Shown piece by piece: positions 38,801 to 64,000 of a stretch of 64,000 nt of DNA. A program made the translations under genes and the position numbers. Source of the stretch: Lingula anatina (lineage: Eukaryota; Animalia; Brachiopoda); the NCBI GenBank assembly GCA_051362555.1, contig CM120640.1, forward strand, positions 68,674,788 to 68,738,787. The letters are read 5' to 3'. Position 1 is the stretch's first letter. The number at the start of each line of letters is the position of its first letter. The notes beneath the pieces are model-generated. The model worked only from the letters and a program-made list of their open reading frames with translations. It made no database searches and was not told the origin of the DNA.

Positions 38801-41750
38801 TACCTATTTATTAAATGATGAATTCATTTTACTTCATAAAGAAAATCTTTCAAGATGACAGTGGTAGATTCCTAATTATTTCTTTTTACAATTGGTATGA
38901 TGTAATATCTGCTGATTGATTTTGTACTGTTTAATAATATAACTCCAGCCAAAAAAAAAAAAAATACTTTGAATCAAATTCTTTCATTTCTGTTAAAAAT
39001 TCTTATAGGTATATCTTTCAGACATACTGATCTTATACTTTTCAAGTTCAAGATGAATGCCCGTCTTATAAGTAAACCATGCTGATGTTTTACTGCACGT
39101 AAACAGGCTTCTGTGGTTTCCTGTTTGTCTACACTCCTCCTGGCATGAATGGGGCACAACACTGGCCTGTCTACATCTTACTGTGACGTCATACACCACG
39201 TCTCAACACATGGCCAATTACTATCTCTGACCCTCTGTGCTGGATATTTATAGCATGTTTATGATCAGCTTGTTTACAAACATTTACCATGAGGTCAGGC
39301 ATAAAAAGTAATGCACCCAACTATCAAAAGGATGTTCTTAATGAAAAACAGTTTTAAACTTAGAATGTTTACAAGGTTCACCATCTTCAATATATAACAA
39401 CAGGGCAAAATTATTCTATACCAAGGGCACTCTAATAAGCCGTCAGACCATATAAGCAAGCATGTGCAATAAGCACTTTATTTAAATCCACACTGGCACA
39501 AGTAAGTTTTCATACTGTGACTCCAGAGTAAACACAAGGCTCTAAGAGTGTCTCTACAGTCAATGCATAGTAGCTTATGTTACGGTTCTAAAGTTTAAAA
39601 TGAAGGAAATTTATGTGACCTAATCAGCTGTTTAGAGATATCAAAATGGTTCTAAAGTTTAAAATGAAGGAAATTTATGTGACGTAATCAGCTGTTTAGA
39701 GATATCAAAATTCAGCAACACGTGCAAAAGCTTGCTAGTGCATGCAAACAACAGGCACAGTAACCAGTCAACAACTATATGCCAGGATTTGTCAGTGTAC
39801 TGATATGTGGTCCTGGACTGGATGGCATAACTATGGATATATTGGCAGCTGTTTCTCCTCCCATGCTATTCCACAATAGCCATCCTTATCGTATTTTCCT
39901 GTTGATACAGCTCTTCTACCTGGATCCCTGCCAGGTGTGATAACTGCAATGGTGGGGTGATGTGTCAGTGGCCTTGAGCAATGTGAAACGATATGCTCAG
40001 CTGGAGAGGGTCACCCAATAACAACAATACAATCCAGGCATGTGACTTGCAAACAAACAGAGCATGAAAATCAAAGCGTGGCCCTTTGTAAAGTATTTAT
40101 TGAAGTATTCTGAAAACATGCTAGGTGCATTTAAACATGGGATTTAAAGAGTTGGGGGAGATACTCTATAAACCAGAATTCCATGTATAGCTAAGGTATA
40201 TTTAATGTTTATGTATGTATGTACGATGTCCTTACATTGTTGTGTGCAAACACAGAATAATGCACATATCAGACAAAGGCCTAGGTTTAAAAAAAAAAAC
40301 AAACCTCTGAACATTTATCATGGGACCCAACACCTAACCTTGACGATTCTTAGGAACCATCAGAATTGAATTAAAATAGGCGGAATTCCACTTTTCCAGG
40401 AAAAAAGCTCATGTCTGATATATTATCTGCATTACAGTTGACCTCTTTCCCTCATTACTTACAATATAAATTCAGTTGGCTTGGTATAAATGAGGTGTGT
40501 CAAATCCATGAATCCTGATTGGCTGTCACAATAAGCCAATCAAACATGTGAAAGATAATCTTCTAATCTTTGAACAGACATGCATTAAAGCCCCTTTAAG
40601 GACAATCAAATCAATTTCCATATCGAAAATCCCTTGCAAATGTTCCTTGGTCACTTTCAGTGACCATCAAAAATCACAAGCTTAAACATTCAAATGAATA
40701 TATCCTTATCTTTGCAATACAAAATTGAATTATTTATCAATAACTACTTGTCCACAATGATCATATTGTTACCTACTTCAAGTTAATAATGTACTAGTTG
40801 CAGCAAAGAAGTCATGTAGCATACTGGTGCTAAGTTTTTGGCCTCTTGGACATCCATTTTTATCAAAAGCTGTGCATAAATTAGGATGCCACTACAAGAG
40901 TTAGAATGTATGATTTCTTGGAACTGTGCAAATGACATCAAGACAAATTGATGTAAGCATTCAGTGGCACCATTTAAACCAGACAAAGTTGAAGCTTTGA
41001 AAGGTCAGACTGCAGCACTTGTCTCAATCTTCAACTGAAACCATTTGACTATACAAATGTATGCTGGGGAGGTAACGGGTAAAACGCAGGACTTTCAAGA
41101 CTTCCACTCAGACAGCTTCCCTATAAATTTGTGGAGGACACAAAAGAGAATTGGTGAACTGGTAAATAAACAGGAATGCTATACAAGCAGTTCATTTATC
41201 TTACATATTATGAGTAGACCATGTCTGCAGGACTAATTAATCCCCTTATGTCTACCACTTAAACCATCAAAATAAGGCAGACTTCAATAAGAAACCATGA
41301 TTCACAACATCCATGTGCTGAGCACGCGTTCAAAATTTAGTCAACACATACAGACATGCATGGGCATGCTTATAAAATACGAGAAAAAACATGACGCTCA
41401 AGACGTGGAAGGAATTTATGAGCACTGTCAATAAATATTGCAAAACAACACGTGCATTAAACTTTTTAGAGGGCTTCATGCCAGGGCGTCTGACGTTCAT
41501 TAGCTCTTTGCGTACCTTTCTTAGGAAGTCCTCGTCCCAGACCCATGCGGGACTTGCGCATGTTTTTCACGGAAACTGGAGGTAAATTGCCATTTACCAC
41601 GGGTGGGTCGTCTTTTCTTGGGCTAAGCTTCGTAAGCCGTTTTGCTTTGCGAATCACTCTGTCCTCCTTTGGTACATCATTTTCCATTGAGTCTTTGCTA
41701 AAGAGCACGTTGCCATTTTCCACTTCGCCATTTTCCATTGGCTGCTCCAT
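32821..41750 (-). CDS. PDCD4: Programmed cell death protein 4 (two MA3 domains, eIF4A inhibitor), 437 aa
   Basis: Coding exons (minus) 41750-41516, 38248-38145, 36958-36845, 36407-36186, 35402-35305, 34623-34509, 34265-34158, 33621-33511, 33331-33192, 32887-32821 (1314 nt, phases consistent). Signature motifs RKSRMGLGRGLPKKGGAGGKGTWG, DPNYDS, IGQFIARAVADD, LLKEYLSSGDIAEATRCLKELEVPHFNHELVYE and C-terminal RGRKRFVSEGDGG. Confidence 0.95.
38240..38395. repeat. 78-bp diverged tandem duplication covering a PDCD4 splice acceptor
   Basis: cacc(a/t)..cctggaa(t/c)aaatagtgaaaat...gggggag...agtgacc occurs twice. The minus-strand AGs lie at 38249-38250 and 38327-38328. Confidence 0.75.
39584..39711. repeat. 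64-bp near-perfect tandem duplication in PDCD4 intron
   Basis: ggttctaaagtttaaaatgaaggaaatttatgtgac(c/g)taatcagctgtttagagatatcaaaat at 39584 and 39648. Confidence 0.92.
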
Positions 41751-41879
41751 GACTGCTTGTTACTGGAATATCAACTCTGTAAACAAAGCTCAGCGAACGT
41801 ACTTTCCACGCAAAATCTGCCCAAAGCAAAAATTGACCCTTAAGGACTAGTCCACGAGGACTGTCAACTAGCTGCCTTG

Positions 41880-42025: not shown

Positions 42026-43637
42026 GAATAATGCGTTGTAAACATCCCCTTGCCACGTTTACATGCATTGATGACTCAAAAAATTCCCTAAATAAATGAT
42101 AATCATCGAAGATCTTATAACGCACTGAATTGTTTCGAGGATGAGAATTTGGGGGGAAATTTTTATTTTGTGAATTATAAATACAACCTAAACTAAAATG
42201 TTACTAGTTTTTTTCTGTTTTTACGTACTCGATCTTTCATGTAAACGAACGGCTTATATAAATACTTGTAGAAAAAGGCTTCTATTTTTTGACGTCATAA
42301 TATTAGCATAATCATGATTGTTTTCCATTATTGAAGCGCGTTATTGTGACTAAAACATGGTATAAAATACTTTTACTTCAATTCCAATACAGCTGACATT
42401 CTAACTTAAATTAAAAAACAAATATATTTAGTGTTACCAAAGAAAAATATGAAAATAAAAATAAATGGTTTTTGTGAACAGCTTACATTGCCAAGTTCCA
42501 CAACTACATATTTTTAATTCAAACCCCATGTTCATTCAGGTTATTTCAGAACCCCTAGAATTATTTCATTACTTTAAATTGGTAAGAGTACCTAAGAAAC
42601 ATCCAAGAGCCAACAGAATGTCACCAAACAGTCAGCTCATTTTTTGGTTTGTTCAGAATCAAAAAGGTTTATTCAAATGATTTTTTATACACCATCAGGT
42701 GAATATTTAGCCTACCATACTGCATCTTTCAATATGGAAGCTTACAATACCAACACAGAAGTGTTAGTGTTCCAAATATGTAGGATTTAAGAGAAAGAGA
42801 GAAAATAAAAAGAAGCTGATAAGATGAATATTTATTTGAATATAATATCATGTAGAAAGACTATAGGAGTATCTTTCTTATTTACATGTAGCTATCTATA
42901 AGACCAAGTTTATATATACAGAAGCTTGTCTCCCTATCTATATACATCATTAGGCAAGTAACAGAACTATTACACATTCAGTTTACTTGGTATAAGAAAC
43001 AGAAAGTTGATGGTACATGATCTGAGTTCATTCATTCATCACAAACACAACCACGATCAAAATCATACGAATCAGCATAGCATTCCAATTCAAAATCTGC
43101 CCCAAAACTCAAACAGAAGCACCACAAAGTAATAATCTGTAACGTTAGTGGGGTTGGTACATAGAGCAGGTCAATGGGAAACGGTAACATAGAGCAATTG
43201 TCTAAAAGATGACATAATGTAGAGAAAATGACATGTAATCTAATATACAGTGACAATAGAAGCTTCACAGAGCAAACTGACTTAAATCAGTGAAGATTGA
43301 ATAGACAAATTTTCATTACTACTTGAATTTGAACCCTTGTGTATCATACCCAGGATAACTTGATTTATTACTTTGAAACCCTCGCTGAATAGAGATAATG
43401 TATGGTAGAATCTACTCCACATGTCAGAATAACTTCATACAGCAATTTTCACATAGGAAAATGTACTCGAAAGTTATTTCAGTATATGTCAACTTCATAA
43501 CTAAAAGCATTTTTAAAAAATGTTTTTTGCAGCTATGTTTCATATGTATATATTATCTATTATGAACATATAAATTCTTTTGTTGCAGATAAACCATAAA
43601 CATGAACACTTAACAAAAATCAATTCACATTAATAAA

Positions 43638-45282
43638 TTAATTTCTTCTGGATCTCAGTCTTCTCTTAACAATGTCATGGGAACTGTCTTTCTTACATGT
43701 GTCTTCTGTGGAAGTAATTATCTGAAAAATACCCAAACAGATATGAAATATAATGCAGATACACTGTGCAACATCTGAAATACCAAAAAATTCAGACAGT
43801 TACCTAAAATTACCGCTTAACAGCAAGTTTTTCTCAATCAACCTGATATTACCTTAATCTTTTAGTTAATCTACTGAACCTATCCAGATAATAAACGCCA
43901 GAGACAGGCATATAACCCACCATGTTAGGCGCACAATCAAAAGGAGCTGATATGTCAGTCTTGAACAGTTTTCTTTTCTTCTTCTCTGTCGTAGGTGGTG
44001 GTGGAGGGGAGGAGGTCGACGACGGAGACTTCACTGGCGAGGTCATACTGTCCCAGATTTTTTTTGCTGTGGAGGTAGAGGTGAAGTCACATGATTTTGA
44101 GGTCTCTGAAATTTGTGTGTGCAGCAAGGAGTAAAGAGCTTCATTGCTCATCAACAGGCGTTAATGGATAACTTCACAAACAGGTTCCTCACCTACCAGG
44201 AGGCCCAGTGCTACATCAAATATTTCTCTTACATTACTCTTACACCCAAGAAATAACTTTTATTCTTTCAAAATTCCCAAAAGAATACAGGCAATCTGAT
44301 AAATAAGGAGCTGTTTGTTTCCAGAAAACAAGCATAACTTATTTTGCAAAAATCTGTTAGAGTAAATAAGAAATAAAAGCATATTTAAAAAATCACACTT
44401 TAAGTAAATTCACTCTTGCAATATTGTAGGATTTTATTTCAACAGAATCTTCAAGTCGAACCACTCAGATTTAATGTTTGTTATTTTCTTTTTTCTATGT
44501 GAATAAAAATATGTATTGGAGTATTGTTAAGATAATGTCACCAAAAAAGTGTTATGCTAGTGGTTGGAACAGCTGTCAGCTAAAAATGGGAGTTACTAAT
44601 CAACAAAGTGACTGCATCATACTTCATGCAGAAAAATGTTCCAAGCAAGGACAATGTTATATCAGTTTTTTTGGCTTTTAAGTTGTGCACATATACATGC
44701 CTACAAGTCATTATTAGTTTAAAAACAAAATCAAAAAAAATTCTGATAATACCTGACTTTCCTATGGGGGAGTTGGTCAGAATGTTGCCCAGTTTTGACA
44801 GGCCATGTCTCTTACTGGCTCTGTCTTCTGACCTCTGGAACTGGTCCTGCTCCTGGAGTGAAACAAAAATGCTACACTTCAAAGAATGGATATAATTTCC
44901 CCTTGGTATTTTAAAATAGATAAAGAGAACATTGGAGAAAATCACCTATTTCATGTGAAACTATGATATCAACAGTATCTAAATGTTAGCGTTGTTCAAG
45001 GTAAACAATTACTATTAAAAATGCTTAAGAACAAAATTTAACACAGTTTCATGCAAAAACTGAGACTTCTGTTTATACGAGCTGAGCATATATTTCACCT
45101 TGTCTGTGCTATATGACTGATTCTCTTGATTTTCTTCCTCTTTGATCTTCTCCACTTTTGACCTGGTCCTACTTCCTCTGGTGGCCCTCCTTGTCTTTGG
45201 AGGAGTTGTCTGAAAGAATTAGCTGGTTCTTTGTTAGAAAACTGAGATAACCATCTACAAAGCCTTGTAAATAATTATTTGG

Positions 45283-45361
<79 letters not shown>

Positions 45362-47685
45362 AAATATCTGAAAGTTTATATTACTTACAGTAATTACAGG
45401 CAAACACCAAGATCAATTTTGCCATGACTAGCATACCTCAGCAGTCTCTACACTCTTCCTCTTCTTGCCACGTGTCGTGCGTGTGGTCCGCCTCGTCTTT
45501 GCCACCTCAGGCGTTGCATCTATCTCCAGGTGTGTCGACGTGAAGGAGTCCTCCACCAGCACGTCGTCCTCGCTGACAGACACAGACACAGACCTGGTCC
45601 TAACAACCTGCTCCTAGGAAGAACAGCAAAACACTTAGATGCCATATCAACTGACTCAACACACAAAGAAAAAATCTAGTGCTATCTTTTGTTATTTGGC
45701 TTCCTCACTCCATAGCAGGGGTTAATGAAGAACTTCATATGGCACATTACTGATCAACCTACCAAATACTGTTTCAATCTTATTGTTTAAACAAAATCCC
45801 CTCCTCTGTACACAACTTTGCAGTCTGACATCTCATTTTCCCTTGGATATTGCAACTTGATCTATCTATTATTATTCTTTTCTTTTTCCCCTTTACTTAT
45901 TGTAAGGGGTATATATTCAAGGTGACATAATAAGCACACAGTTATCCAAATAGAACAGAAAACTGGACACATCAAAAGGAAATTAGCACATGGCTGCCAG
46001 ATGGTACAGGCGTAATTTGGCAATAGCAAAGGTCTACAAGCAGATTAAAAATCTAAACAGGTATACAATGACAAAATAATAATAATAATAATAAATATAA
46101 GCATGCTCATGGAAGGCTCTACGGTGAAATTATTAGAAACAAAATGCAACTCAACCATAAGACAAAACCAACAGGAGTTAAAAAAACAAGATATTACAAA
46201 AGAAGCCACTTTAAGCTAAATACAGTGAATATACAGTTATCAAAATAATGATTTCAAAACTATCTTAGGATAGCCTTGAAAAATCTGATAGAGTATTTTT
46301 TGAAAATCAAACAAAATGGCTCTTTTAGTCACTCTCATTAACCTGCTATAAAATTTTGAAGATTTATCCAAAAAAATTATTTCTAAAGAGCTAACATTAT
46401 TAAGACTCCAATGAGATATTATTGATAATGGTGAATTAATTTCTGGATGATCTACTGGTGATGCAATCAGATAATGCTTTTCTGGATTATTTTGTGCTTT
46501 AACAAAATTGCAATAAAAAGGGTGGAAGAAGAGTATGTTGTGCAGATCTAATAAGCAAGCAAATAAATGAAATAAAAACACAACATCAATTTACCTCAAG
46601 AATTTTGATGTGGTTTTGTAATTGTTTGTTTGCTTCAAGAAGATCCCCAACAATTTCATCTTTAGACAGATAGACCTTATCGAGGGTCTTACTGACGTCA
46701 CTACTCCTTTCCCTCTCCCTCTCCAACTACAACAAGACAGTTGAAGCAGACCTTTTAACACTCAAATCATGCAACAGGGGGTATGGTTAGTGATATAAAA
46801 TAGTAATAATAATAATAATATAATAAAAAGAAAGGCAAACACATAACTGCAAAGACAAAATTGAAGTAAAGATAAAAAGAAGGTTGGGAATATAATTAAC
46901 ATGGATTTTTGGGGGCTAAAGCAAATTCATAATGATTTTCATGCTCTTTGCATACAAAACCTTATTTGTGAATCAACTTTCACATTTCAGGCAACAGATG
47001 TTTAATACAGAAAGATATTTTTAACAATGTCTACCAACATAACCAGGCAGTCAATTATTATACTTCATATAAGCAATGCTTTAAGAGATTCATAAAAGTG
47101 ATATTTTTAGAGCAGATAGTATTTATCTAGATACTGAAATGTTTGCAAACAGTTTGCGCACTTTTTACAGTCCTACTACAGAGAACTCTGATACTGAACT
47201 ACAGTATCATCTACGCAGTCTGTGTGATGGGAGGCATTTATGCACAGGTTGAAGTCTATACTATGGGAGAAATAACATGGGCACGTGCACCTGGAGACCA
47301 TAAAAACCCTATTAGCACACCCTCCCTCCATCTTCAGCCTGTATCCCACTCACCTCCTCCTGCAGGTTTTTCACCTCCCTGGCTGTGCGGTGATGGTGGT
47401 GGTGGTGGTCCTGTTCTGCTCTAGACTTCTCTCCTCTCTTGGACCTGCGGTTATTGGAGCCAGCGCCCAGTGCTGCAGACGCCCCCTGCTGGTTCAGCTG
47501 GTCTAACAGCTTGGATATTGTCAAATCCTTGTCTTTTACTTGGTTTTCTAAATCTCTCACTGTTGAGTACTTGACCTACAATTTGTCCAGAATGTCAAAC
47601 ATGACTAAACAAAACTCCAACATAAATTTTTAATAAATCAAAATGTTTAGTTCTCACTTTTCAGACAAACAATCTTTGCTCTGAC

Positions 47686-47732
<47 letters not shown>

Positions 47733-50700
47733 GATAAGATTTATATATCGATAAGGATATTGCTAATCACTTCATGAACAATTGCAAAATACCTCTCCTT
47801 CATTGCCACCATTTTCCTTGAGGCTCTTAATTTCTGCATCTTTGTCCTTAATCATCTGCCCTAGCTGTTTGGCAAGCTGGTCACGCTTTTCTCTGAACTC
47901 CTGTATGATAAGATAGATTGGAGCACAATGTGAACCGGTTTTGAAACCACACTCTAATGTCAAGCAATCGCCATAAACTAGTTCAACTGTTATGTTTAAA
48001 TTGCTCCGAGCATCAGGTTGTGGAACTAGACAGAAGGGACACACAACTACCTGTGTTACTTCTAACTGTGATTCACACATAAATTTTGCCTACTAAAAAG
48101 ACAAAAATTCACATATCAAAATATCTCTGACCAACTGACTTATTAAATACAAGTCATACCTTGAGTTCAGCCTGCTTCTTCTCTTCTGCAGAAGCCAGTT
48201 CCTTGTGCAGTTTATCAAGTTCCCTTTGCATTTCGCTGATGGCATCCTCCTTAATCTAAAATTATATAAATAAATAAACACTGTTTATACTACATTAATT
48301 CTCAAATGCTACAACATGCATATCCCATTTTCAATTCCGATGTATACACTTTGTTTAGAATTCTCTACCATTTCCATCCTTTTTTTTCCTCTCACTGACC
48401 TTGACCTGCATACTGAGTTGCCGGACCTCCTTGCTGGCATCATTCGCCTTCTGCTTCGTCTTCTCCAGGTTCTCCTGAATGGACTGCTTGGCCTCTGAGG
48501 TGGCTTTGTCCACTGCTTGCTGAACAACTTTCTCCTGGTCAAACTTCAGGGTCTCCAACTGCTGACGGGTGTCTGGAATATCAAACAGATCTGTGTTCAC
48601 AAATTCATTGTAAACTTAACTGCACCAGTTAAACGGAGTGTGATTCAAAAACCACATATTTTGTAAAATGACAAAATTGCTTTCTAATATCAACAATTCC
48701 CCACTCACTTTAACCAGGAGGAAATGTTTGGGTTTTTTTAAAATAAATTACTTTGAAACAATAACCTGATATCATACAGTCATAACGATACGCTTATTTA
48801 TGAGTATTTATTATATAACAATGTATCACTTACCTGAAAGCAGTTTCTCCATTTCTCTCAGCTCCTGCTCATTCTCCTTGAGTACTCTGTCCATCCTGGC
48901 CTTCTCAGTCTCCATCTTGGTCAGCTTGCTGGCCTGGCCTTCCACCTGCTTCATCAGGCCCGTCTTGATCTCGTCCAGTGTCTTCTTCTCTGTCTCCAGG
49001 TCCCGGTACAGCTGCTGCCAGTTGTCAGACTCCTTGCTGGAGGTACGTTTACTGGACTGCAGCTCAGAGTGCCTTTCCCTGAGCTCTTCTAGTTCTGAGA
49101 CAAAAAATTAAAGAGGGAGATTTATTTAAATTTGATCAACTTGACATAATATTATACCCTGCACCTCTTGTATTGAACCTAAATAGACAGCCACAGCAAA
49201 ACGTTGACAGCTTATTGCTAATAAACTAACCAAAAAAGAAGAAATATATATTTCACATCAATATTTGAACTCATATTTTAAAATTTAAGACGTATTTCTG
49301 TACCTCACTTCTAAATTTTTATGAAAGGTAAGAATGATCATTCAAAGCTGCAAAATAATACCTAGCACAAGCACACATGACTCACCTTGAGAGAGGTCCC
49401 CAATCTGTTTTTCCCTACTGTTCAGCACCTTGTCTTGTTGCTCCATTACGCTCTCCTGTTCTGCAAGGGCCTCCTTCAGAGTCTCTATAAGCATTTCATT
49501 TGATTTGGCATCTGAAAAGACAACAAGAAATCATTGAAAAAAGTTATCCTAAAGAATTATGACAGATACTAAAATTGGCCTGTAAAAATTTAGATAAAAA
49601 TGCACAGCTGGTGTTTTTATCTTCCACTGTAGGTGCACTTCTAATAAATACACACAAAAAGGAAATATGTTTTGCAAAATAATAGAAGTTGTTTATATAT
49701 CCAACGGGTAACGTTCTCACCTTTAAGAGCCAATTCAAAGCTGTTCCGCTCAGTCTCAATCTTGGTCCAGAGCTCGGAGATAGTTTTGTTCTTGTTCTCA
49801 ATTTTCTGGTCTCTGTTTCTCAGCTCTTGCTGCAACTCTTCAACTTCCTTGCCCTTGGCAGACAGGGCTTCCGCGTGTTCCTTCAGGATTTTCTGCTGGC
49901 TGGCTGACTCCTTCTGTAAGAAAGTTCAAACACTTTTAAAAAGCACATCCCATACACCATTTCAGTACACTAACAAACAGTCAACTGGGTAATTATTTTC
50001 ATTTTTTAAAACATCTTATCCAATTTGCTACTTGACAAACCAATTTGTGCCATGTGTTCAAGTAATTACAATGGAAAACAACTTATTAATAAAAATTAAC
50101 TCAAAGAGTGCAGTATTCTGCTTTATGCTTTGATTATTTGGTTATAAAGCCTAAAGAAATTGGTAATATGGAAAAGCTAACCATTCTACAATAGTTCACA
50201 AGCATAGTAAGAGTACTTTGAGAAAGTTTCCACTAATGCCACCACCAAGGATCACACTGCGAGTGAGACAGAAAAGAAAGTTTACATTAGTGAAAGCAGC
50301 GGAAAGAATTATATGTGTGCCGCACACCTCTAGCCTAGCACAAGCAGCTGAATTCTCCTGTTGTTTCCTATCGTACTCCAGCAGGCTCTGGTTGGCGCTA
50401 AGGAGCTGGTCCTCCAGCAGGTTGTACTTGCAATTCTGCTCTTCCATAGAGCGTGATGCCTCCTGGAGCTGACTCCGCAGGGTAGCCTCTCTCTCCTGGC
50501 ACTGCAGCACACACACACAAAACAGCAGCAGCATTAATACAGGTGGCTAGGTGCACTGCAGTACAAACTCTACATATGCTACTAAATCACTCACTTGATT
50601 TCTTTTCTTGTGTTATTAAGATCTTACTTTGCTTTCAAAACTCTGTCTCTCTCTCTCTCTATCACACACACATCCAAACACAGCATTAGTCAAAACCAGT

Positions 50701-53700
50701 CTTTTCAACCTTTCAGTGTACTCCAAATGTTAGCATTCTGTAATTCTTGTTGCTCTTGCACAAGGACAGCATCCAGGCCCAAAATCAGTTTCTTGGATTT
50801 TTCTTTCATTAGTTGACATTCAGAAAGTCTAAAGAAAGCTAAAAAGGTCACGTATATGGTCAGCACACTATTTTAAGACTGAAATTCCTTACCTTCTTCA
50901 GGTCTTCCAGCAGCTCATCAACCTTCTTCTTTGACTCCTCCAGTTTAGAATATTCCTCCCTCAGCTGAGTGGTGGACTCTTTCTTAGCCTGCAGTTCCTG
51001 TTGGAACGTCTCCAAGTTCTGCTTGGCTGCCGTCTCGTGTTCAGTGGCTACCTTTACCTGGAACAACATATAACAAATCATTTTTAACACTAAATCAACT
51101 CCTTTACTAGGTTCTTGGTTCTGCTAATAAAATCAAGGAGACAATTGTGAATTAAGTTCAATGTACAAAGCTATTGAATATCCACTCATCCTTAATGTCC
51201 AACCAGATACAGAGTAGAATTTAAACAATCAGTCTGATGGTCTCAGCAACTTTAGCTGTAATCCTAATGGACATGATCATAATGTCCTTCAAACTCTCAC
51301 CTGGTCATGTAATATGGCTGTCTCATTTTTAAGCAGGTCAATTTGCTTCTGGTATTTCTGCACAGAGTCCTCTCTGCTACTGAGTTCATCCTGGTACTTC
51401 TGCTCCAGTCCCTCTATCTTTGCAGTTTTCTCCTCCAGCTCCTGCTTAAGTCTGGCAACTTCAGAGTTCAGGTTGGAGACGTGGTCACTCTCTTCTTCAG
51501 AGTCATCCTTCAATCTGACATTTTCTTGTCTGAGCGCGGTCAGAGTGTCTCTCAAAGTGGCCACTTTTGTTTCAGAGTTCTGTAACTTGGTTTCGTTTTC
51601 TTGTAAATCACGTTCCAGTTTTGCGAGTTGGTTATTCAGTTCCTGTATGGCACTTTCTTTGTTTCTGAGTTCTTCATTTTCTGAGGAGATTCTGGACTCC
51701 AGGGCTGACTGCAACTCCTCCTCCAATTTAGTTTTTTCTTGTAAAGTCTTTTCACACCTTTGTGAAATGTCTGCCATTTCAGATTTCATTAAATCATACT
51801 GTTCATTTGCTTTGAAAAGCTTATCCGCATTTTCATTTTTCTCTTTCTCAAGTCGTTCAATCTCTTTCAGCAAATTACCCTCAAGTTCCGATGAACTTGC
51901 CTTGAACTGTTGGAGTATTTTATCATTTTCTTCCTTTTCTGATGTAACTTTGTCCAATTTTTCCTTAGTCTCACTTTGCTCTGCATTTTTTGTTTTTAAC
52001 TCTGACATAGCTTCCTCTAATTTCATCTTATTCTCATTCAGCTCTGCAGTTTTTATTTTTAATTCTGACATAACTTCCTCCAACTTCTCTTTACTTTCAT
52101 TCAGCTCTTCAATTTTTGTTTTCAACTCTGCCTCAAGCTGAGCTGCAGACTGCCGCACAGCATCCAAATTTGACTGCACCTCTTTTAACCTCTCTTCCAC
52201 CTTGGCATGCTCTTTCTGAAGTTGAGCATTTGAAGATTTTGTCAGTCGCCATTCTTCGTTACTTTTCTGCAAATCCTCCACACTCTTCCTCAACTCAGAA
52301 ACTTTCTCTTCAGCCGCCGAGCAGTCTCTGGTTTTAGCATCCAGTTCTCCCTGCAGTTCTTTCGCCCTTTGCCTCAGTGTTTCCGTCTCCCTCTCCGTGT
52401 CCTGGAGTCTGGAAGCCAAGGCATCCAGTGCCTGGACCTTGGCCCTGTGGCCCTCAGTCAGCTCCTCCAGCTTCCTCTGCATGTCCTGCTCCTTCTCCAC
52501 ATGGTGCCTCACACTGGCCTTGGACGCCTCCAGATCTCCCTCCAGGTCCTCGATCTGAGAACTTAGGGCCGCAGTCTTGCTCTCCAGCTGCTCCCGCGAT
52601 GCCTTCAGTTCCTTTTCCCTCTCTGCCAGCTGAGACTTGAGTGTTTTTATCTCGGCAGTTCTTTCCTCACTGACGTCTTCATTCTCAGTGGCAATATCTA
52701 AAGACATTTTCAAACCTGCAATTTTGGTCTGTGCTTCTTCGTACAGTTTTTCATATCTTTCATTTTCTTTTTCAAGATGGCACAATTTCTCAGATGTCTC
52801 ACAGTGGACCCTTCTTTCTTTTTCCTGCACCCCTTCAAGTTTTTCAATCTGCAGTTGCAAGTCTATTATCTCTTTTCTTTCTTTTTCTTGCTCTTTCAGT
52901 ACGTCATCATATTTGCACTTTAATGATGTCACTTCTTTCTCCTGCTTTGCGCAGTGACCATTGCTGTCTTTGAATGCAACAAGCTCTTTCTCAAGCTGTT
53001 TGATTTTAGCTTCCTGCTGTTGGTTTGAAGTCGACATTGTAGCAACTTCATCAGATAATAGTTTGTTTTTGTTTGCCAGAGCCTTACTTTCTTCCTCAAC
53101 CATCTGTAATCGATTAAGAACTTCATCTTTAGTTTGCACTTCTGTTCTGAGGTCTGATTTTAAGATGTCTATCTCACTCTTCAGTTTGTTAATTTCATTG
53201 TTCTTTTCAATGCATTCCTGTGAAAGACGATCAATTTCAGCATGCTGGCTACCTTGGGAATCCTTCAGTGACTGCTGCTGTAGTTGCTCTTTTCCCAGTG
53301 CAGTTTCATTTTCCATCACCTTCTGCTGTAGACTGGCAATAAAGGCTTCTTTCTCAACTAATTTTTCATCCAATTCTCGTTTCTGCTTCTCCAGCTCGCT
53401 GCATTTATGTTCTAGTACATCCTTCTCCTTACACTCTTCTTTCTTGGAGTCTTCACCCTTCTTCTTGTCTTGTGCCAACATTTCCTCCAGCTCCTGAATC
53501 CTGTACTGGAAGATGGTGACATTATCGGCGGCATTGGCATACTTCTCCTGCTCAGACTCCAGGTCAGATTTCAGTTCCCTCACCTGGGTCTCCAAGGCGG
53601 CTACCCTCTCACAGGAGGCTGTCAGTTCAGAGGCCTGGCTCTGGCACAGCACAGACACATCCTGAGACTTCTGCAGACCAGACTTTGCACCCTCCAGCTC

Positions 53701-56700
53701 AGATTGCACTTGCTTCAGCTTCTCCTCCATGGCAGAGACTGCAGCCTCGTGGGTCTGCCGTTGCTCCTCTGCCTGCTTCTCCAGGGCTTCAACTTTCTGC
53801 TTCACTGCAGACTCCTGGCTCTCAAGCTGGCTTTTCTTTTGGTCCAACTCTATCTTTGCATCTCTTAGCAGCTGATTTAGTTCAGAGACAAAGGACTCAT
53901 GATCACTGAGGGATTTCTTATACTCTTCAATGCTCTCCTCTAGCTTAGTGATCTGGGCCTGTTTCTGTTGAAGCTCCGAGTTTGTCTGACCGACAGACTC
54001 CTCTAGAGCTGCCACTTTGGAGGTTAGCATGCCAACTGTAACTTCCTGTTTGTTTTCGTTCTCTGTGAATTAGGAAAACAATTACAAGTTAATCCCGAGA
54101 AAACTAATACTAAAATGTCTAGAACAAATTAACAGTGGTATGTTAATATGGTCCCCGTCTGCTCCAACTTCACATCCCCAAAAAGCACCTAGACCAAAAA
54201 AGATCCAGCTATTAGTTTTCTTCCCCATTAGGCACTTCCCTAATTGTCCAACTCACAGCAAGCATAGAAGAGTCTATAAGAAAAAACACAAAACAAAAAT
54301 TAGTTTTTAAGATTACATTTATTAATAAATAATTTTAATATCAATTTAAAAGTCACAAAAGAAATGACTGAAGGCTACACATTAAACTATCTAAAAAACA
54401 AAGATGTAATACTGGGAGTGGAATAAAGCACCAGCAAAAATCAATAATACCCTATATATTCTACACATAAGACATTTACAAAAAACAGTGATCAAAATAA
54501 TATATTAAAAATGCGTCTTCACAAATAAAATTTGGTATAAAATGCACCACTTGTAGAACAAATTTAACATAAAGAGATCAATCTGCACAATATTTTGTCA
54601 CTACAATGTTTTAACTAAGACTTTGAACGTAAAAAGTATACTGTAGAAACCCTGTGGAAAGGACAGCTGTATCACATGCTGTGGCACCATCACATTTTTA
54701 TAATCAGGTGACAAGAAAATAACATGATTTTATGTTTTTTCACTGGAACTAACCTTTTAAAAATGAGATCTTTTTTTTTTTTTTTGAAATTCACATTTTG
54801 TATTTTGAAAAATTAAAAAAAAAAAGGCTTTTGCAAGATTCATAAAAAAATTCAGGCAAAGGGCAATTTTTTCTTGGTTCTGGATCTTAAACTGTAAGGT
54901 TTTAGTAGACTGGACTTTCTCTTAGCAATTTTACTGTCAATAACCTTGCTCTTCCTACGCCCTGGTGTACCTCCAAAGAGGGAGGACCTTTTACGCTTTG
55001 AGGCCGAACTGAGTTTTTCATCAGTCTTTTCCTTAGATTTTCTTTTCAAGGGACTTTTGCCCATTAAACGAAGAAGGCTAGTTTTGGTATGCTTTGCAAT
55101 AAAGCCACATTTTGAAGGTGTGAGCTTAAGTCTCATACTATGAGCAGCAGCCTCGTGGGCTTCTTGTCTTTCATCGTGTCTACTAGGCGTTCCTTTGGGC
55201 GTCTCTACCTTCTGGTCAACTACAATTTTAGGCACAGGACTTGAGGAGACGCCGTCCTGAGCATTACAAGCTGCCAGTGAGGGGCTGACCTGGGTTGTAG
55301 TGTGACTTGTGCTAGGTTTACTACCTGATGTAGTCTCTAGCTGAGACTGAAGCTCTTGGATTGTCTTGTCTCGGGCATCCAGCTTACTGTTGGCAGTCTC
55401 CACAGCCTCTCGGGTCTCTTCAAGTACCTTGTTCAGTTCTTCAATGGTCAATGCCTTTAAAAAAAATTTAAAAATCTGACATCAGAACTTTAGGTGCTAC
55501 ACCAGTATTGAAGTCTGTATGAAGACAACAGCATATTTTAGAAACCACATAACTTATTTCACTTACGCATGCAAATTTGAAGTTTGTTTTCTTTTTTTTT
55601 TTTTAATAGAAAAAGTAAGCTTAACTTAGCAAAAAATAAATTGCAACATTAAAAACAAAACAACAAGCATATAACCAAAAATATTTTTCTCATTGGGTTT
55701 GGGAAAAACTGTAACTGTGTGTCAGAGTGGAGAGCGGTTGTCAGCAGAATTGTTCTTCCAATATTTTAAGGGTGACGTACAGTGCACCCAGCAATACCTG
55801 TTGTTCAATTTTCTCCACCTCCTGTGATAATGCCTCCTTCAGCTTGCCTATCTCTTCCTCCTTCTGCTGGAACGTCTCTCCCGCTTCTGTCAGCATCTCA
55901 TTCAAGTCCTCTGCCTCCTTACTCTGGGGAAGAGAAACCAAGGCAAACTGTTAAAGGAATGCTTTTTAAAATTTTGTTGTTCTTTATTTTGACCCTTTAA
56001 AAACATTCCCAGCCTCTGTCGACAATCAACTCTCATCATTTTCATTCAAACTATAGACAATCATCCATTAGCTCTCAATTTCCCAAAAGAGTTCCCAGTT
56101 ACCTTCTGTGCCAACTGTTCTTTGGAGTGCTGGAGTTCCCTTCCAAGATTCTCCATTAGCTCATTAGTTTCAATGTCTCCTGAATTAGACCTCTTATGTT
56201 CTACCTGAGCCTGGCAGAGAAAGAAAGAATGAGTGCTTCTTTTCAATGACCAATTTAAGATCTAGTGTTAAGTTAGTCCCTTGATTGGTAAAATTTGAAT
56301 TTAAATGACAATTAAAGTATCAACTAGAAAAGCACTCCGAGAGCGCAGACCTCCGCCAAGGCAGCAATTTTGATTATTATTGATTATTGATCTGGATCAT
56401 CACCAAAAACTAATCACTTCTAAGTTAACCCATTTCTGACCTACCCTGAAAATTTCATCAAAATTGGTTGATGACAAACAGACAGACAGACAGACAAACA
56501 AACAAACAAACAAGGGAGAAAACATAACCTCCTTGGCAGAGGTAAAAAGGAGTTATTGATAGAGAAAAAAAAAAAAAAGCTCTTACTTGTGTGATTTTCC
56601 TCTTCACCTCATCCAACTGTTCCTTGGCTTCCGCCAGTTCTGCTTCCAAGCAGGCTTTTTCCTTCTGTAACTTTTCACAGGCCTCTTGTTCACTCTGGGA

Positions 56701-59700
56701 ATTTTCCTGAAAGATGGCACATACTACAAAACCAAGACTCTACATTTCAAAAATTCTGTTTTCTCTGACCAACAGGTGGAACAATTTTGCAGGTGCTTCA
56801 AAACACATGGAGGAGTGGATGTCTTTTTAATGCAAAAAGTACCAAGTTCCAGGATTTCATCCTAGGCAAATCAATGGGGTAGAAACACAGGCCAAGCCAA
56901 TGCACTAAAAAACATATAACCTAATAATTTTGCTATCAGAGATAAACCTGACACGCCGATTTAAACTTCTGACCTACCGACTGCTTGCTCTTGAAGCTGG
57001 CCACTTCAAACTGCAGTTTGGTGTTTTCTGCCATCAAATTGTTCTTCTCCGTGGTCATCAGCCTCATGTCCTCCCTGCTGGCCCTCAGGTCTGCCTGGAG
57101 ACTGCCCAGCTTGGTCTGCAACTCATGGAGCTGCTTCTCCAGGTCCTGCATGGGGGAAAAAAAACAATAAAAATTATCAACATGGAAAGGGATATTACTG
57201 TAAGCGAAAAAAATGTTTTTTCTAATCCTTACAACCAAACAAAACTACGGAAGCAGATATCATAAATCAACAAGAATCTGGAAGAACTTATGGTTTGATC
57301 ACATTGATCTCCTGGTGAAAGGAGGCATAGAAGAAAACATTCTAACTTTGTCGTTGTTGAAGTTTATTATACTGTATAACACCTTTAATGGAGAACTTGA
57401 GCAGGGTCAGTAATTCACCTGATTCTTAATCTGAGCTGCATGTAGCACCTGGCTGGAAACCCATTCATCCTCCTCGTCTTCAAACCTGTCCACTCGTGCT
57501 CTCTTCCTGGTCTTCCTCACAGACTGCGTGAACATCTCGATCCTCTTCTCTGCCTTCTCCTCCACCATGATGGTCTCCTCTCGCAGTCTCTCACTGACAG
57601 AAATGATTACAAGGTTTTGATAATTTTGTTCATCTTTAAAGCTAATAAAAAACACTTCTCTGTATGAAATTCAAAAACTGATCTTAAAAACCATTTCAAT
57701 AACAATATTAATGAGTAGAGAGCTGAAGCTAATATAGTCAAAATTTATCAAAAGCGCAACCAAAACCCGTTTGCCTGGGTTTCTTCATAGCAAAATTTGC
57801 CCCCTTTGCTTTCAACTTCATTTTAAAAAGAATGTTAAAACATAATTAGAAAGCATAGTCTGGGCATCTTCCACGCTAACTTATAATGAACAAGACAACA
57901 ATTTCCAGTACAGAACCTCAAGGGAAAACAAGCTCAATATGTCTGCATTTCAATGAAAAATTGTTATGTGCAAACAGTGAAAATCTCAGTGTGCTCAGTT
58001 ACCTGTACTGGTTCTCAATCTGTACCAACTGTTGCGCCATCTCCTGACACACCTCCTCCCGTATCTGAGCCTCCATCTGGGCCATCTTGCGCTTCTCAGA
58101 CAGCAGGTCCTTCTTCAGGGACTGGATGATGTCCAGCAGCTCCTACAAATGGGGACAAATGACACAAACTGGGTGAAAAGTATGCCAAACATACTAGCCA
58201 CTGAGACCATTCTTATCTTTGAGAGGTTCACATATATTTTTACATTGAACAGCACACTGAAGACACAACATCCATAAACTACTGGATTCATAACTAATGT
58301 TTTCACATATTTCCAATCAGATAAAAAAAACTTTCATATGAAACTAAAATCAGAAATAAATGTCAAATAAACTTATCAGTTTTCCAGATAACCATTTTAA
58401 ATTACATGTAGCTCTCAGCCCTGTTGTTATCCACATGGTAAAACACAGGGGGCCATAAGATATCTGCACACTGACTTCAGGAAGCCAGCACTATGTGAGC
58501 AAGGATATAATTCATCATTGAGCTAGCAGACTCAACATTTTACTATAGATTATATATATAGGGAGAGAGTAAAAAAATTACCTGTTCCCTGTCTGTCTCA
58601 GACTCCTCAAACAGGCCGTCCTCATCGTCCTCCGGAATAGGCAGGTTCATAGCCTCCAACATTGTGCCTGTGGGAGAAAGAAAGCGGGACACCGGTGTCA
58701 TGGTCTCATCTTAAGTAAGCCAAGTGTATTTTTCAAATCCCTTTCCTTGCTGGGTTGGTTATCATGACAACATCTTTTTGGAAGTTGTTATTTACTGTCA
58801 CTAATTTAAATGTTCAATTTTACAAAATATAAATGAAAGTAACGTAGGTGTTAGAGCAAGATTTTTGGGTGCAGGACTAATTAAAGTACTAAAAATAACA
58901 TTTGATGCCAGGAAATTTTAACAGTCTGTTCTCTTTGTGAAAAATTACAACAGAGATCTGTTAGAAATAGTCGTCAGAGTGGCCCATACCAGGAGTGGCC
59001 CAGCTGATGGAGGGCCTGACAGCAGAGGATCTGGGCGTCTGAGCCAAGGCCATGGAAACCAAACGAGCTGCATTCCTCGTCTTCTTCTTCTCTTCCTCTG
59101 GGGGTTTCTGTATCACAACCACCTGATAACACCAAACAACATACAAGTCCATTAATACCTGAAGGTCAAGGTAAAGGCTCACATATCATCAGAATCACAT
59201 TTAATATACATTTCACTAATAAATTGCCATAATCATGAATAAAAACTTAATTCTCTCTGGAATACAAATAGGTTTTGACAGTATTATTATTTGTTGAAAT
59301 GCTATTCTGAACTTTTTCAAGTTACTTAGAGTACAGGGAGCAAAGAGGGTATGGAATAAATAAAATATCCTAGGGAGATGTGAAAACAGGAGATTCACAG
59401 ACAAGGTGGATAAAAGAGTGAGAAGAACATCCAAATTTCTGATGTCCTCCACCTCCTCACCTGTTTTGCTATAGCTGAGAACTTCAAGACGTGAAGAGTT
59501 TCATCAAACAAAGAGGCACACTGGTTGACGTTCACTATCATGGCAGCCTTCCCTTTGCCACAGAAGAAGTTCTGGAACAGTCGGGTGAGTTTGCTCTCAC
59601 GGAAGGGAATAATCTTCGGATGTTCTCTAAACAATGAAATAACATTTTTTTTTTATAGAAAAGGTTGACCAAATGAAATATTGTTGCACAGCTTATACAT

Positions 59701-59770
59701 TTTTGCCATTTATCAAAGCTGAAAAATATTTTAGAGGTCAACTCAGCTATTTGGATAAGAGAATTTTTAA

Positions 59771-59806
<36 letters not shown>

Positions 59807-62800
59807 TAACATACTTGAAATCTCACAAGAATGATGGAACTATCATCACTAAGATAAAGGATCTCTTCGGGAAAACCAGTAGCAATTCTTTCTGACTTGC
59901 AAGTTTGAGCAAGTTCATTTTATTATTTCAGCTAAAAACATTCTCTTACACTATATGCAAGGAAATAATGAACACCTACTTGTGGAACTGATTATGTTTA
60001 AGTGCAGCAATACATCTCCCCAACGTGAGGAGGGAGGTGTTGATGTTCCCAGCTTCCTTCAGTCTCTCTCCTGTATTGTGAGTCTTGGTGTAGCGCTCGG
60101 ATCCAGCCAAATCACAGAAAGACAACCTAGACAAAAAATCAATCAAAACTCGATTGCATCAACAATAAAATGCTAAAGACCAAACATATCCAGACTTATT
60201 ATATCTGTTTTGTTAAAAGACCAGCTGAACAGTATTTCATTATCATCTCATACTCACATGCTGATTCTAGCTACATGGGGATCATCTTTGGCAACTACTC
60301 GCAGCACCTTGATTGTGAAAATACAATGGCTGAAAAAAAAAAGATAATTCCAATATTTACCAACATTGTAGTGTATCAGCCAGAAAAGAGGAGAAATTGA
60401 ATTGGCAATGTTAATCATTTACTAGTAGTCAAGCATGATTTTGGATTGCAAGAAAAAAAGTTGAAGAAATGGCTTCGTGGCCATATGATCACATTCGGAA
60501 CTCCTCGACAATTTCCGGCTATCTTCCGAACGCCTTGAAACTAGTCTCGGATGTATGACAGTAAAAAATGTTGCCTAAGCACAACATATGTGATCAGGTC
60601 AAGAACCCGGATGGACGGCGCCGCATCACTAATGTATACTGCAATCAAAACAATATAGTTCCCCCAAAACACGTGGATCTAACAAATATGGCGTCATTCG
60701 ACGAATGTATTGAATATGCACTATCTTCCTGCCCACTTTTTAAAGATCAAGACTTCAAACTACGTGAAAAACAACTGGAAACACTGAGGATATTGTCGAG
60801 GAGTTCTGAATGTCCTGTCAGGGCGCCGTCATGTTTATTATTGTTTACATCCGGGTATCTAGAGTAGTTTGCACTACTACCAAAATGGCGACGTCTGTCA
60901 TACGGCCGAGATATGATGACGCAGGAATCAATCGACGGTGAGCCGAGTGCATATGATCAATGAAGTTCAACTGTGAAGAAAAAAATGTCAAAGTTTGAAA
61001 TACTCATCATCCTGCCTGGGACATCAGAGCATACTGAACACCGAATCAAATGCAGAAGGCACAGTTTGGAAGAGATCACATACCTTCTACTTGAGCTATG
61101 GTTCAGCTTTGTGCAGGCCACCTGTAGGTTCTTCTTCCCAATGGTCAGAACCCGGTAAGCTTCATCAGCACTGGTTACCTGAACAGACTTCAAACCTGGA
61201 AACATGGCCAAAGTTTAGTACAATTTTTGTCTTGTGATTTATCCTACTGCTCTATTTCATACACACAAAAGAATATTTTACTATGCCCAGGCATGAGACC
61301 AGTCCTCACTGAAAAAGTAGGATTTACACAATTCACAAGAATGACACAAATGACTCTGAAAAAGTCAGAATTCCGTCAAAAGTTGGAAAAGTCTCATCAG
61401 TGCATGCCAATTCACATATAATGCACAGCTGACACCTATCTCACCTCTAATATATGGGCTGCCATTCTTGTCTTCACTAAGTTTGAGAGTAGGCCGCCTA
61501 GCATTTTTCTTCTTAGGGAGAGGTTCCAGTAAGTCGTAGATGTACTCGTTGTAGACCTCAGCAAAGCTGACCCACACAGAGAACTTGACCTGACCTTGAC
61601 CTTCCACACTGATCGCTGCCTCCTCACGAACGCGGTTCTCTGCCTCCTCAAACAGCTTTTCCAGGTTCTCCTTGTCTTCTGCAAGTCCGATTATATAAAT
61701 AAATGCTAACAGCCATTTGCATACACCATCTAATTTAAAGTATGTAAAATCTTTCTACAAATTATTGTAATGTAATTCTTCAGGAAATACTAAAAGTTTA
61801 AAGACAGACTTGACTAATTCTTCAAAGGCAATAGTGCAGACTGATTTACCAATAAACAGTTTAAGGGCTAAAATTGTGTTTGTCCTATTGCAAACCCTTA
61901 TAACTGACTTCAGGAATGCACAATTTTGTTATGATACAACTACACACACCATCTTCAGTCTCAATAGCCGACTCTACGGGATTGCTTTCTTGACTCTCAT
62001 CCTGGCTTGTGGCGGTGGATGTGGAATCTAAGCTTGGAGCCAGGGACTCTGCAGAGGTCCGCGTGCTGCAGCTAATCCTGGACATGTCACTGAGGTCATC
62101 TCCAAGGAGGCTGGTCACGTCAGGCTCCTACAGGGAATGAATGGGGGGGGGGGGGGGGGAGGTCAAACAGTGAAACCAGCCACTAACAACTGAGCATTCA
62201 TATTTGTAAAAAATGTTCATGAAATCAATTATAATCCACTTGTACTACCCAAAATCATAATTCATGTTTATTTCTCTGCACTGATTATTGTAACCACTAT
62301 GAAAGTGGTATATTTATATCTATAATTTATTTGACATTATCACTGCTTATCACTACACTTTGCTCAAAATATTTGTCGTACCTCCGGAGTGGCAAGGCTC
62401 ATGACGTTCTCCTTGTTTTTCTTTTCTAGTTCTACTTGTTTATCCGAGAGCTTGACGACGTCAGTGAACATCCTTGGTTTCAGACTCATGCTCTCCCACT
62501 GCTGGCCCTCTATACTGTTGAACAGCACGTCCAAGGCTCTGGGGAGGATTCCGCCATCTTTAGGGTTACCTGGAACGCAGGAGCATCAAAATGATTACTT
62601 TTCATACACTTTCTGAGTTGAAAAATTGGTGTACTGACATTTCAATGGCAATGTCCGAGACTAACCTTAGGGGTGTTTTACAAGCATTTAAAAACATCTT
62701 AGTTGTTTTTAAATGCACAGCAAAAAAGGCAGTAAAAAAGGGGCCTTATCTTTCCCAATTCAGTCCCCAAACAAAAAAATCCTCTTATTCAAGTTTACCT

Positions 62801-63293
62801 GAAGTTTACCTGTTGCTGAGCTTTAGAATTTCAATTAACCACGATTCCTTCAGAACCATCCATATTTTTTAATTAGAAATTTTGTAGAACTATAATTAGT
62901 GCATAGCAGAACATGCTTTTTCCTTGAGGGAAATTAGACTTGGAGTAAAAAATGTTGTACAGAACACCTTTCAAATAAAGTGTATTACAATGTAAACACC
63001 CCACCATTAGTCATAGCACGATTTAAGAAATCACCTTGAATAGTGTAAGTCTTTCCAGAGTTTGTAACTCCATAGGTAAAAACAAGGCAGTTCTGCCCAT
63101 CAATAAAGTCTTTCACAGTGCCAAGCATGGTCTCATCAAAGAACTGTTTCTGTTCCGTTCCCTCTGAGAAGATCTTGGAAAATGTGAACTTGTGAGTCAT
63201 TTTTCCACAGCCATGTGTGCTGTTCTTGAAGGTAACAGACTCCTTTGGTGCATGCATGACCAGGTTGTTGATATTCTCAAGTTCCATACAGCC
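43638..63293 (-). CDS. KIF20B: Kinesin-6 family motor, long KIF20B/MPP1-like isoform (>2520 aa in window; 5' end beyond 64000)
   Basis: Exons (minus): 63293-63035, 62569-62382, 62127-61950, 61678-61445, 61195-61084, 60329-60258, 60126-59980, 59626-59461, 59122-58990, 58667-58582, 58142-58003, 57593-57419, 57145-56978, 56706-56587, 56210-56103, 55923-55798, 55454-55325, 54062-51301, 51057-50893, 50501-50328, 49913-49721, 49511-49386, 49094-48834, 48572-48400, 48255-48160, 47900-47793, 47575-47354, 46726-46595, 45613-45437, 45209-45099, 44852-44753, 44066-43921, 43721-43638 (7572 nt, phases consistent). P-loop [11 protein letters not shown], long kinesin-6 loop-6 insert, switch I NHSSSRSH, switch [29 protein letters not shown], very long coiled coil. 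Tail motifs resemble vertebrate KIF20B as recalled ([12 protein letters not shown]; [11 protein letters not shown]). Confidence 0.88.
45286..45357. repeat. Poly(A) plus (AT)n microsatellite
   Basis: Directly visible. Confidence 0.95.
47689..47730. repeat. (AG)n microsatellite
   Basis: Directly visible. Confidence 0.95.
54281..54323 (-). terminator. Intronic polyadenylation signal of the short kinesin isoform
   Basis: Minus-strand AATAAA (plus tttatt 54318-54323), followed ~20 nt later by a U/GU-rich element (minus atttttgttttgtgtttttt, 54300-54281). It sits ~220 nt before the next acceptor at 54063. Confidence 0.65.
54852..55454 (-). CDS. Alternative (composite) terminal exon giving a short KIF20A/MKLP2-like isoform
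   Basis: Acceptor at 55454 (phase 0). The frame runs through the weak donor CAG|GTAGTA (55324) for 157 more codons to TGA at 54852. The tail is basic and S/T-P rich and ends [16 protein letters not shown]. Confidence 0.75.
   Translation of the reverse strand, partial: ALTIEELNKVLEETREAVETANSKLDARDKTIQELQSQLETTSGSKPSTSHTTTQVSPSLAACNAQDGVSSSPVPKIVVDQKVETPKGTPSRHDERQEAHEAAAHSMRLKLTPSKCGFIAKHTKTSLLRLMGKSPLKRKSKEKTDEKLSSASKRKRSSLFGGTPGRRKSKVIDSKIAKRKSSLLKPYSLRSRTKKKLPFA
56324..56545 (-). mobile_element. Short HINE/DINE-1-like Helentron derivative in kinesin intron
   Basis: CTAG end at 56324. Adjacent hairpin gcactc-cga-gagcgc. Subterminal IRs acctccgccaagg (56349) / ccttggcagaggt (56531-56543). 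(GACA)n(AACA)n microsatellite at ~56473-56512. Confidence 0.8.
59773..59804. repeat. (AT)n microsatellite
   Basis: Directly visible. Confidence 0.95.
60459..60972. mobile_element. Non-autonomous DNA element with interleaved inverted repeats and a truncated ORF start
   Basis: CpG-rich island in an AT-rich intron. Ends agttgaa/ttcaact. Direct repeat catatgatca (60482, 60950). IR pairs 60491-60516/60788-60813 and 60545-60561/60895-60911. Confidence 0.65.
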
Positions 63294-63344
63294 CTGAAAA
63301 TGAAGAGAGAGATCAATATTACCACTAAATTTAAAGTCATAATA

Positions 63345-63950
63345 ACTCTTCGTTTTGGCCAAAAATTGGATTTTCCTGGAGTAAACGGCAATTTTCCCGT
63401 ACTCACCAATGGTCAGCGACCCCATTCCTGCATTCAAAGTTAATCCAGGGTTTTTTTCCTAAACGTACGGTTTTTTGTTAAAATCTCTTAAGTGATTTTA
63501 ACTGACGGAGCCCTCTCTAACATAGCATATCGAGCGGGGTTTCTGATGACCTACTTAAAACCGCGGGAAAAGCAGACAACAACAACACTTTATTGCAATA
63601 AAATAAGATTCATACGATATAATCGTCTTAATTGCTCATATTCACAAGTGTGCAGTTCTGGGCTTTTCGTTATCCGACACACTGCACAAAAACTCGCAAC
63701 TTACGTCTGAGGATTGTGTCATGCGCCTGTGTTATTTTGGTCTCGACTGCACGCGAGAATCCGCGTGATGCGCCAAAATCCTTGGCAACGAATGCCTTGA
63801 TGACCGGGAAAAAAGGCACCGAAAGCCCTATTGACAAGCACAGTTTTTAGTTTTACTACAATAAGAGCCGTTTTAGTGGTGAAATGCAATATAATATATT
63901 TCCGTGTGTTGTTTCGAATGTATTTCTTGCGGAATTTTGAATCTCAAAGG
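63345..63950. mobile_element. Probable DNA-transposon remnants in kinesin intron
   Basis: CpG-rich non-coding stretch with hAT-like starts (caggaatggggtcgctgacc on minus at ~63430; cagggttttttt at ~63446). No kinesin-like exon found. Boundaries uncertain. Confidence 0.35.
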
Positions 63951-64000
63951 AAGAGTTATTATTGCTTTAAAATATTGTCATACAGTGGAACTTATGAAAT

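Follow-up and report, generated by a model that had tools for sequence, protein, structure and literature searches.

A splice switch in a Lingula anatina KIF20 gene between a KIF20B-type long motor and a likely read-through short motor

The 64,000-nt stretch of Lingula anatina DNA analysed here (the window) carries a gene on the minus strand that is, to judge from its predicted protein, a kinesin-6 of the KIF20 subfamily. It was modelled in 33 exons, each with AG and GT at its borders, and has no internal stops. The first modelled exon matches the Pfam Kinesin family (PF00225, E 6.8e-16), and wherever a family name was given among 50 protein-search matches it was KIF20A or KIF20B. In gene trees, which contained no KIF23 row, FastTree placed the window protein among the lophotrochozoans and outside the molluscs; the nearest row in IQ-TREE was Mytilus (69%). 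A long loop-6 insertion in the motor is given as a KIF20 trait in the accessible text of PMC5909929; the motor exons here encode ~452 aa against the 327 positions of the Pfam model, a surplus that may include such an insertion. Two products are predicted from the model, a short one of 1004 aa and a long one of 2542 aa, with the N-terminus outside both; the motif of the first motor strand was detected in none of the frames of the 64-kb window. A reading made earlier from the sequence alone had given the same short length and a long one of ~2523 aa. A region at 63460-63800 (within 63294-64000) looks CG-rich and promoter-like, which may bear on the gene's 5' exons or on a nested start. The locus is laid out as follows.

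55798..63293, minus strand: 16 shared upstream exons, encoding the kinesin-6 motor, neck and short stalk.
55325..55454, minus strand: composite exon, shared 5' part (130 nt, or 43 codons plus 1 base), coiled coil.
55319..55324, minus strand: switch donor G/GTAGTA, phase 1, Gly-Ser when read in frame, used in RNA.
54852..55324, minus strand: read-through frame encoding a 157-aa basic tail, with an HTKTSLLRL block and a terminal YSLRSR.
54300..54851, minus strand: putative 3'UTR of the short form, GC 0.26, with sense reads at 54508-54740 fading by ~54400.
54281..54339, minus strand: candidate poly(A) signals (ATTAAA at 54339, AATAAA at 54323) and a downstream U/GU-rich stretch.
54063..54280, minus strand: intron-only remainder and acceptor of the giant exon; RNA depth 0-2 at 54088-54297.
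51301..54062, minus strand: 2762-nt coiled-coil exon, the first that is specific to the long form.
43638..51057, minus strand: 15 further long-form exons, ending in a KIF20B-type tail.

An AATAAA is found at 43369, beyond the long-form stop codon.

The exon at 55454-55325 ends in the donor CAG/GTAGTA. The sequence-only reading had described this as a weak phase-1 donor; the phase holds, but the weakness is only moderate (tied 12th weakest of 32, in a matrix built from the gene's own donors). When this exon is left out, translation of the model stops at aa 817; skipping it breaks the frame, and the long form therefore requires the 55325 donor, as had been proposed. If the donor is ignored, the frame remains open for 157 codons to the stop at 54852, just as first read. 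At the other 31 donors the corresponding frames have a median length of 13 codons and never exceed 57, and of 20000 base shuffles just one stayed open. The tail so encoded has 37 K+R and 11 D+E residues, with 28 K+R within the last 80 aa, and seven S/T-P sites. No Pfam family matched either the short or the long tail. The AATAAA and U/GU-rich element noted earlier are present at 54323-54281, but AATAAA alone is weak evidence, because the gene's 31 other introns contain ten more, with ~0.5 expected per 550 nt. Two AATATA variants, at 54506 and 54460, could serve as poly(A) signals instead.

RNA evidence was sought in four of nine same-species raw-read runs (X1, X3, X4, and X7), sampled at ~6% of reads for X1, X3, and X4 and 25% for X7, and aligned to 53500-54740. 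X1 and X3, which are samples of one study, gave 114 and 59 matching reads; X4 and X7 gave none and are uninformative. In 12 X1 reads and seven X3 reads, the loose ends at 54065 carry the closing letters of exon 55454-55325. These are the junction reads from 55325 to 54062 that the sequence-only reading implied, and the internal donor is demonstrably used for the long isoform. Sense-strand depth is 9.6-27.2 (X1) and 3.7-15.2 (X3) at 54508-54740, within the intron, and just 0-2 (X1) and 0-1 (X3) at 54088-54423, where a few pre-mRNA reads were found at 54130-54297. There is therefore an RNA that includes the first part of this intron and not the rest. On the 2762-nt long exon, depth is 6.4-35 (X1) and 0.6-20 (X3); the short and long forms look similar in amount, with poly(A) selection favouring the short-form UTR. 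Sense coverage fades between 54510 and 54400, a very AT-rich stretch, 100-200 nt short of the AATAAA at 54323, and no untemplated poly(A) loose ends were listed at this depth among reads on 53500-54740. Cleavage near 54300 is plausible as a candidate site compatible with this fade. Cleavage at 54513, where six fragments begin, was considered and rejected: there is no upstream signal, there are no poly(A) ends, and the next bin has 19% GC. Within the giant exon, at 53767-53824, reads from both positive runs differ from the window at 7 positions in 58 nt, likely representing another allele.

Short proteins with a related tail were found in Mytilus, oyster, Sinanodonta, Mactra, Patella, Pinctada, and one Logan cluster. 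An HMM built from these seven non-window tails scores the window tail at 41.9 bits, a value reached by none of 1000 shuffles; the read-through frame has been kept in molluscs. In pairwise comparisons of the window tail with seven other lophotrochozoan-type tails, 0-3 of 3000 shuffles scored as well for six of them, and 99 of 3000 for P0138. Across species the read-through tail is 128-265 aa long. The oyster has both products. Its short form of 956 aa, encoded on a 3520-nt Logan contig, agrees with its RefSeq long form (2302 aa) at 796 of 798 residues, after which the two diverge, Gly versus Asp, at the point homologous to the window switch. That the whole short CDS fits on a contig of this size points to an origin in spliced RNA. 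At least seven full-length short forms, on contigs of 3.3-3.6 kb, are present among the 15 of 40 oyster cluster members listed, and the read-through frame is contiguous in the oyster contigs; complete short CDSs on contigs of ~3.5 kb are found for oyster and P0138. A 200-aa query spanning the exon and tail had no matches among 3064 candidates, the tail HMM found no arthropod or cnidarian match among 292 collected proteins, and none of 26 echinoderm entries is a short form. Two gene models, Littorina P0122 (998-1122) and Mytilus P0052 (855-978), read through almost all of the short tail before splicing onwards; these are either chimeric predictions or a third isoform made through a late donor. 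The coral Montipora has extra, internally shortened KIF20 genes (P0059, P0061, P0062, and P0020), ~94% identical to its long gene and with long-type ends, suggesting a lineage-specific route to short motors.

The split is also seen in amphioxus. Branchiostoma belcheri has models for a short form of 976 aa and a long form of 2133 aa, from different assemblies, identical at 817 of 846 residues and parting at the same place; the amphioxus short form, like the coelacanth and sturgeon ones considered below, is a gene model. In six of eight species, amphioxus among them, the split comes 72 aa after an AGETF anchor. All eight tails with a definable start begin with Gly followed by Ser, Thr, or Ile, the kind of residues that a G/GTA donor read in frame would give. 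The amphioxus tail itself has 128 open codons and ends in YNLR, lacks the HTKTSLLRL block, and is matched weakly by the mollusc-type tail HMM (16 of 1000 shuffles). The expectation that the same composite exon would be split elsewhere is borne out by the oyster sequences and the amphioxus models and not by the echinoderm entries. Overall, the switch is very likely real and shared with molluscs, and, judging from the models, it is quite likely shared with amphioxus as well.

Among vertebrate kinesins, the long product resembles KIF20B (MPP1), with which it shares a long stalk and a homologous C-terminal tail; the resemblance of tail ends first noticed by eye is upheld by profile-profile comparison (probability 99.4, E 6.5e-22). 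The difference is that in Lingula the long motor is one of two products of the gene. According to the accessible text of PMC5909929, the long KIF20B stalk apparently evolved in vertebrates. Long forms are however known in amphioxus, echinoderms, molluscs, arthropods, and corals, and together with the KIF20B-homologous tail this argues, against the view in that part of the source, that the long stalk is ancestral. Short KIF20B models also exist, in coelacanth (888 aa; three records) and sturgeon (651 aa; a record flagged unverified). Both exit the long frame after a conserved PP-KK-G segment and start with Gly-Ile, and their tails (P0159 849-888 and P0258 617-651) share a basic sequence, with 1 of 20000 shuffles doing as well. 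When the coelacanth tail region was used as a query, the sole hit among 7988 scored sequences was the query itself. These models may reflect a short KIF20B isoform that is unannotated in vertebrates. Their donor would be that of the same intron as the invertebrate switch; this is put no more strongly because the profile match of the pre-split segment to KIF20B (29.7) did not exceed controls (up to 37.1).

The vertebrate duplication appears to postdate the two-form gene, as the sequence-only reading had presumed: all 16 vertebrate-type rows in the tree (P0160, with no motor match, was left out) fall on one side of a 100/100 branch, so that the duplication is confined to vertebrates. The vertebrate motors form not two clades but three, KIF20A, KIF20B, and a third, short-tailed paralog found in sharks, bichir, anchovy, and newts (P0127, P0045, P0145, P0148, P0158, and P0238). 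The last is annotated as KIF20A and forms a separate clade (100/98). KIF20A groups with it (89/85), with alternative orders not rejected (p-AU 0.167 and 0.096). The earlier proposal that a pre-duplication gene made both motors and that each paralog then kept one isoform fares differently in its two halves. One gene with two forms is what the window, the oyster sequences and the amphioxus models indicate, in line with the first; the second is contradicted in part by the short KIF20B models and the third short paralog, and one isoform per paralog is therefore probably too simple.

KIF20A (MKLP2) is like the short product in its motor, short stalk, and short basic tail, and it ends soon after what may be the same exon boundary; the differences are that homology of the tails is undetectable and that an RRSQR element is missing from the invertebrate rows. 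The similarity of the short-tail end to that of KIF20A, suggested earlier, did not hold up. In profile-profile comparisons the short tail shows no significant likeness to the KIF20A tail (probability 0.2%, E 0.27), and the long tail is equally without homology to it (E 0.3). With the mollusc-type tail HMM, 114-773 of 1000 shuffles score as high as KIF20A tails, and pairwise short-tail scores range from 1 of 3000 shuffles (frog) to 2561 of 3000 (deer). The layouts are closer. Ray KIF20A isoforms part after 799 aa, with 106 aa to the stop, at what would be an exon boundary in register with the window donor at 55798; human KIF20A has 19 exons in the available part of PMC11393963. The window pre-split segment scores 27.6 against KIF20A, compared with at most 18.4 for 13 control coiled-coil windows, the match itself being weak (probability 7.5%, E 0.005). 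The link to KIF20A is thus one of layout, not of sequence. In the available text of PMC7337490, an RRSQR-type element helps human KIF20A to bind the passenger complex, and the mapped region aligns to the shared stalk. In an alignment made by eye, frog, ray, and sole rows have RRSQR variants, and a counterpart was found in none of four invertebrate rows (window, amphioxus, oyster, and Mytilus). The motifs of the short form lend no support to a KIF20A-like role in transporting the passenger complex. As far as the available text of PMC3672163 goes, KIF20A depends on its residues 843-890 to bind myosin-II and to be targeted to the cortex, which implies that short tails can carry function.

Taken together, the findings are probably best explained by a splice switch between a KIF20B-type long motor and a likely read-through short motor, in place before the molluscan and chordate lineages separated. 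Splicing of exon 55454-55325 to the giant coiled-coil exon gives the long motor with its KIF20B-type tail. When the donor is ignored, translation would continue for the further 157 codons, and polyadenylation within the intron would complete a short, basic-tailed motor. The moderately weak donor presumably sets U1 binding against cleavage ~1 kb downstream. One motor-neck module would in this way bear either a ~1700-aa stalk and tail or a tail of ~160 aa. Composite terminal exons made by intronic polyadenylation are familiar from lamin C and secreted IgM, where a 5' splice site is likewise in competition with a poly(A) site further downstream and a new C-terminus comes from the read-through; the KIF20 read-through tail differs in being long, at the 128-265 aa given above, and conserved across phyla.

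After the vertebrate duplications, the long-form exons would likely have disappeared from KIF20A and the third paralog but stayed in KIF20B, which in the coelacanth and sturgeon models apparently kept an early exit too. Whether KIF20A descended from the short isoform is an evenly balanced question. The full scheme, in which the single KIF20 gene of the bilaterian ancestor chose at one phase-1 donor between a short nucleosome-binding motor and a long-stalked one, KIF20A and the third paralog are fixed short forms, and KIF20B hides an unannotated short form in some vertebrates, is offered tentatively and falls somewhat short of an even case. A parallel is Drosophila domino, where, in the excerpted text of PMC7239659, the DOM-A and DOM-B isoforms and human EP400 and SRCAP are called convergent. 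Both systems have isoforms of one invertebrate gene corresponding to two vertebrate paralogs; the difference is that in the KIF20 outgroups both isoforms arise at one and the same conserved intron, a sign of an ancestral state, and that a vertebrate paralog may keep both.

The strongest competitor, itself on the doubtful side, is that the invertebrate switch is real and KIF20A was shortened independently after duplication, by exon loss and a new tail or by internal deletion, making the likeness convergent. This would fit the absence of homology between KIF20A and invertebrate short tails, and a basic/PP-KK segment is common to KIF20A and the pre-variable part of KIF20B (E 0.0025, probability 12%) and absent from invertebrate exon ends. 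A tail motif of the third paralog also resembles a long-tail motif by eye, without confirmation from profiles (E 0.42). KIF20A is, though, just as unlike the long tail, whose conservation elsewhere is good, echinoderms and mammals included; it ends 106 aa past the same inferred exon boundary; and the early exit is kept in KIF20B models from two distant bony vertebrates, all of which speaks against this alternative. It is improbable that the switch is a lophotrochozoan trait and that in amphioxus and the bony fish the short models come from gene prediction running on past a donor. The late-splicing Littorina and Mytilus models indicate that predictors do mishandle this donor, and the amphioxus and bony-fish short forms are known as models, the former without the HTKTSLLRL block; the lack of short forms among the echinoderm entries is in keeping with this too. 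A run-on would nevertheless be unlikely to stay open for 128 codons and finish in YNLR (121 of 100000 shuffles of the amphioxus tail end so), and matching tails in coelacanth and sturgeon would not be expected of run-ons. It is very improbable that the intronic reads come from unspliced or degraded pre-mRNA, oligo-dT primed on the one sense-strand run of 15 A in the putative UTR, with no stable short mRNA here: the absence of listed poly(A) ends and the few pre-mRNA reads agree with such an origin, but these reads are as deep as those on the spliced long exon and thin out roughly tenfold over 300 nt, protein comparisons show the frame to be conserved, and the ~3.5 kb oyster and P0138 contigs hold the whole short CDS.

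The conserved end of the short tail suggests what it might do. A terminal Y[NS]LR is present in all nine invertebrate short tails, as YNLR in eight and YSLR in the window, and in none of 132 collected proteins longer than 1300 aa. In the available part of PMC12527912, the arginine of lamin A YNLRS anchors on the H2A-H2B acidic patch of the nucleosome, and that of PMC12125541 describes foamy virus Gag YNLRPR as a nucleosome acidic-patch motif. Short KIF20 tails share Y-[NS]-L-R with the anchor arginine, the KIF20 case being a four-residue match in a motor tail. By this analogy, Y[NS]LR is predicted to let the short tail hold the motor on chromatin or on other acidic surfaces, and the S/T-P sites might control the tethering. 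Nuclear import or microtubule binding could equally well be the role of so basic a tail. Three amniote-type KIF20B long tails (P0184, P0206, and P0233) contain an internal YSLR[SN] upstream of their conserved terminal block, and short forms may therefore not be alone in having the motif.

A search of largely open-access literature found no account of an invertebrate gene that makes two KIF20 isoforms, or of how such isoforms relate to KIF20A and KIF20B; the supposition that the arrangement had not been described agrees with this, and the switch, real and deeply conserved, is apparently undescribed. It would reverse the printed polarity for kinesin-6, with the KIF20B-type stalk and tail being old and short motors arising from or beside long ones, and a single choice between splicing and cleavage would change the length of a mitotic motor 2.5-fold. 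Vertebrates are also predicted to have a short KIF20B isoform and a third KIF20 paralog, which bears on the interpretation of fish and amphibian knock-outs, and the lamin and Gag analogy supplies a specific hypothesis of how the short tail could bind chromatin. Downstream of the KIF20 gene, at 33000-41760 on the minus strand, is a PDCD4-like neighbour with MA3 domains; KIF20B and PDCD4 both lie on human 10q, and an old linkage is possible.
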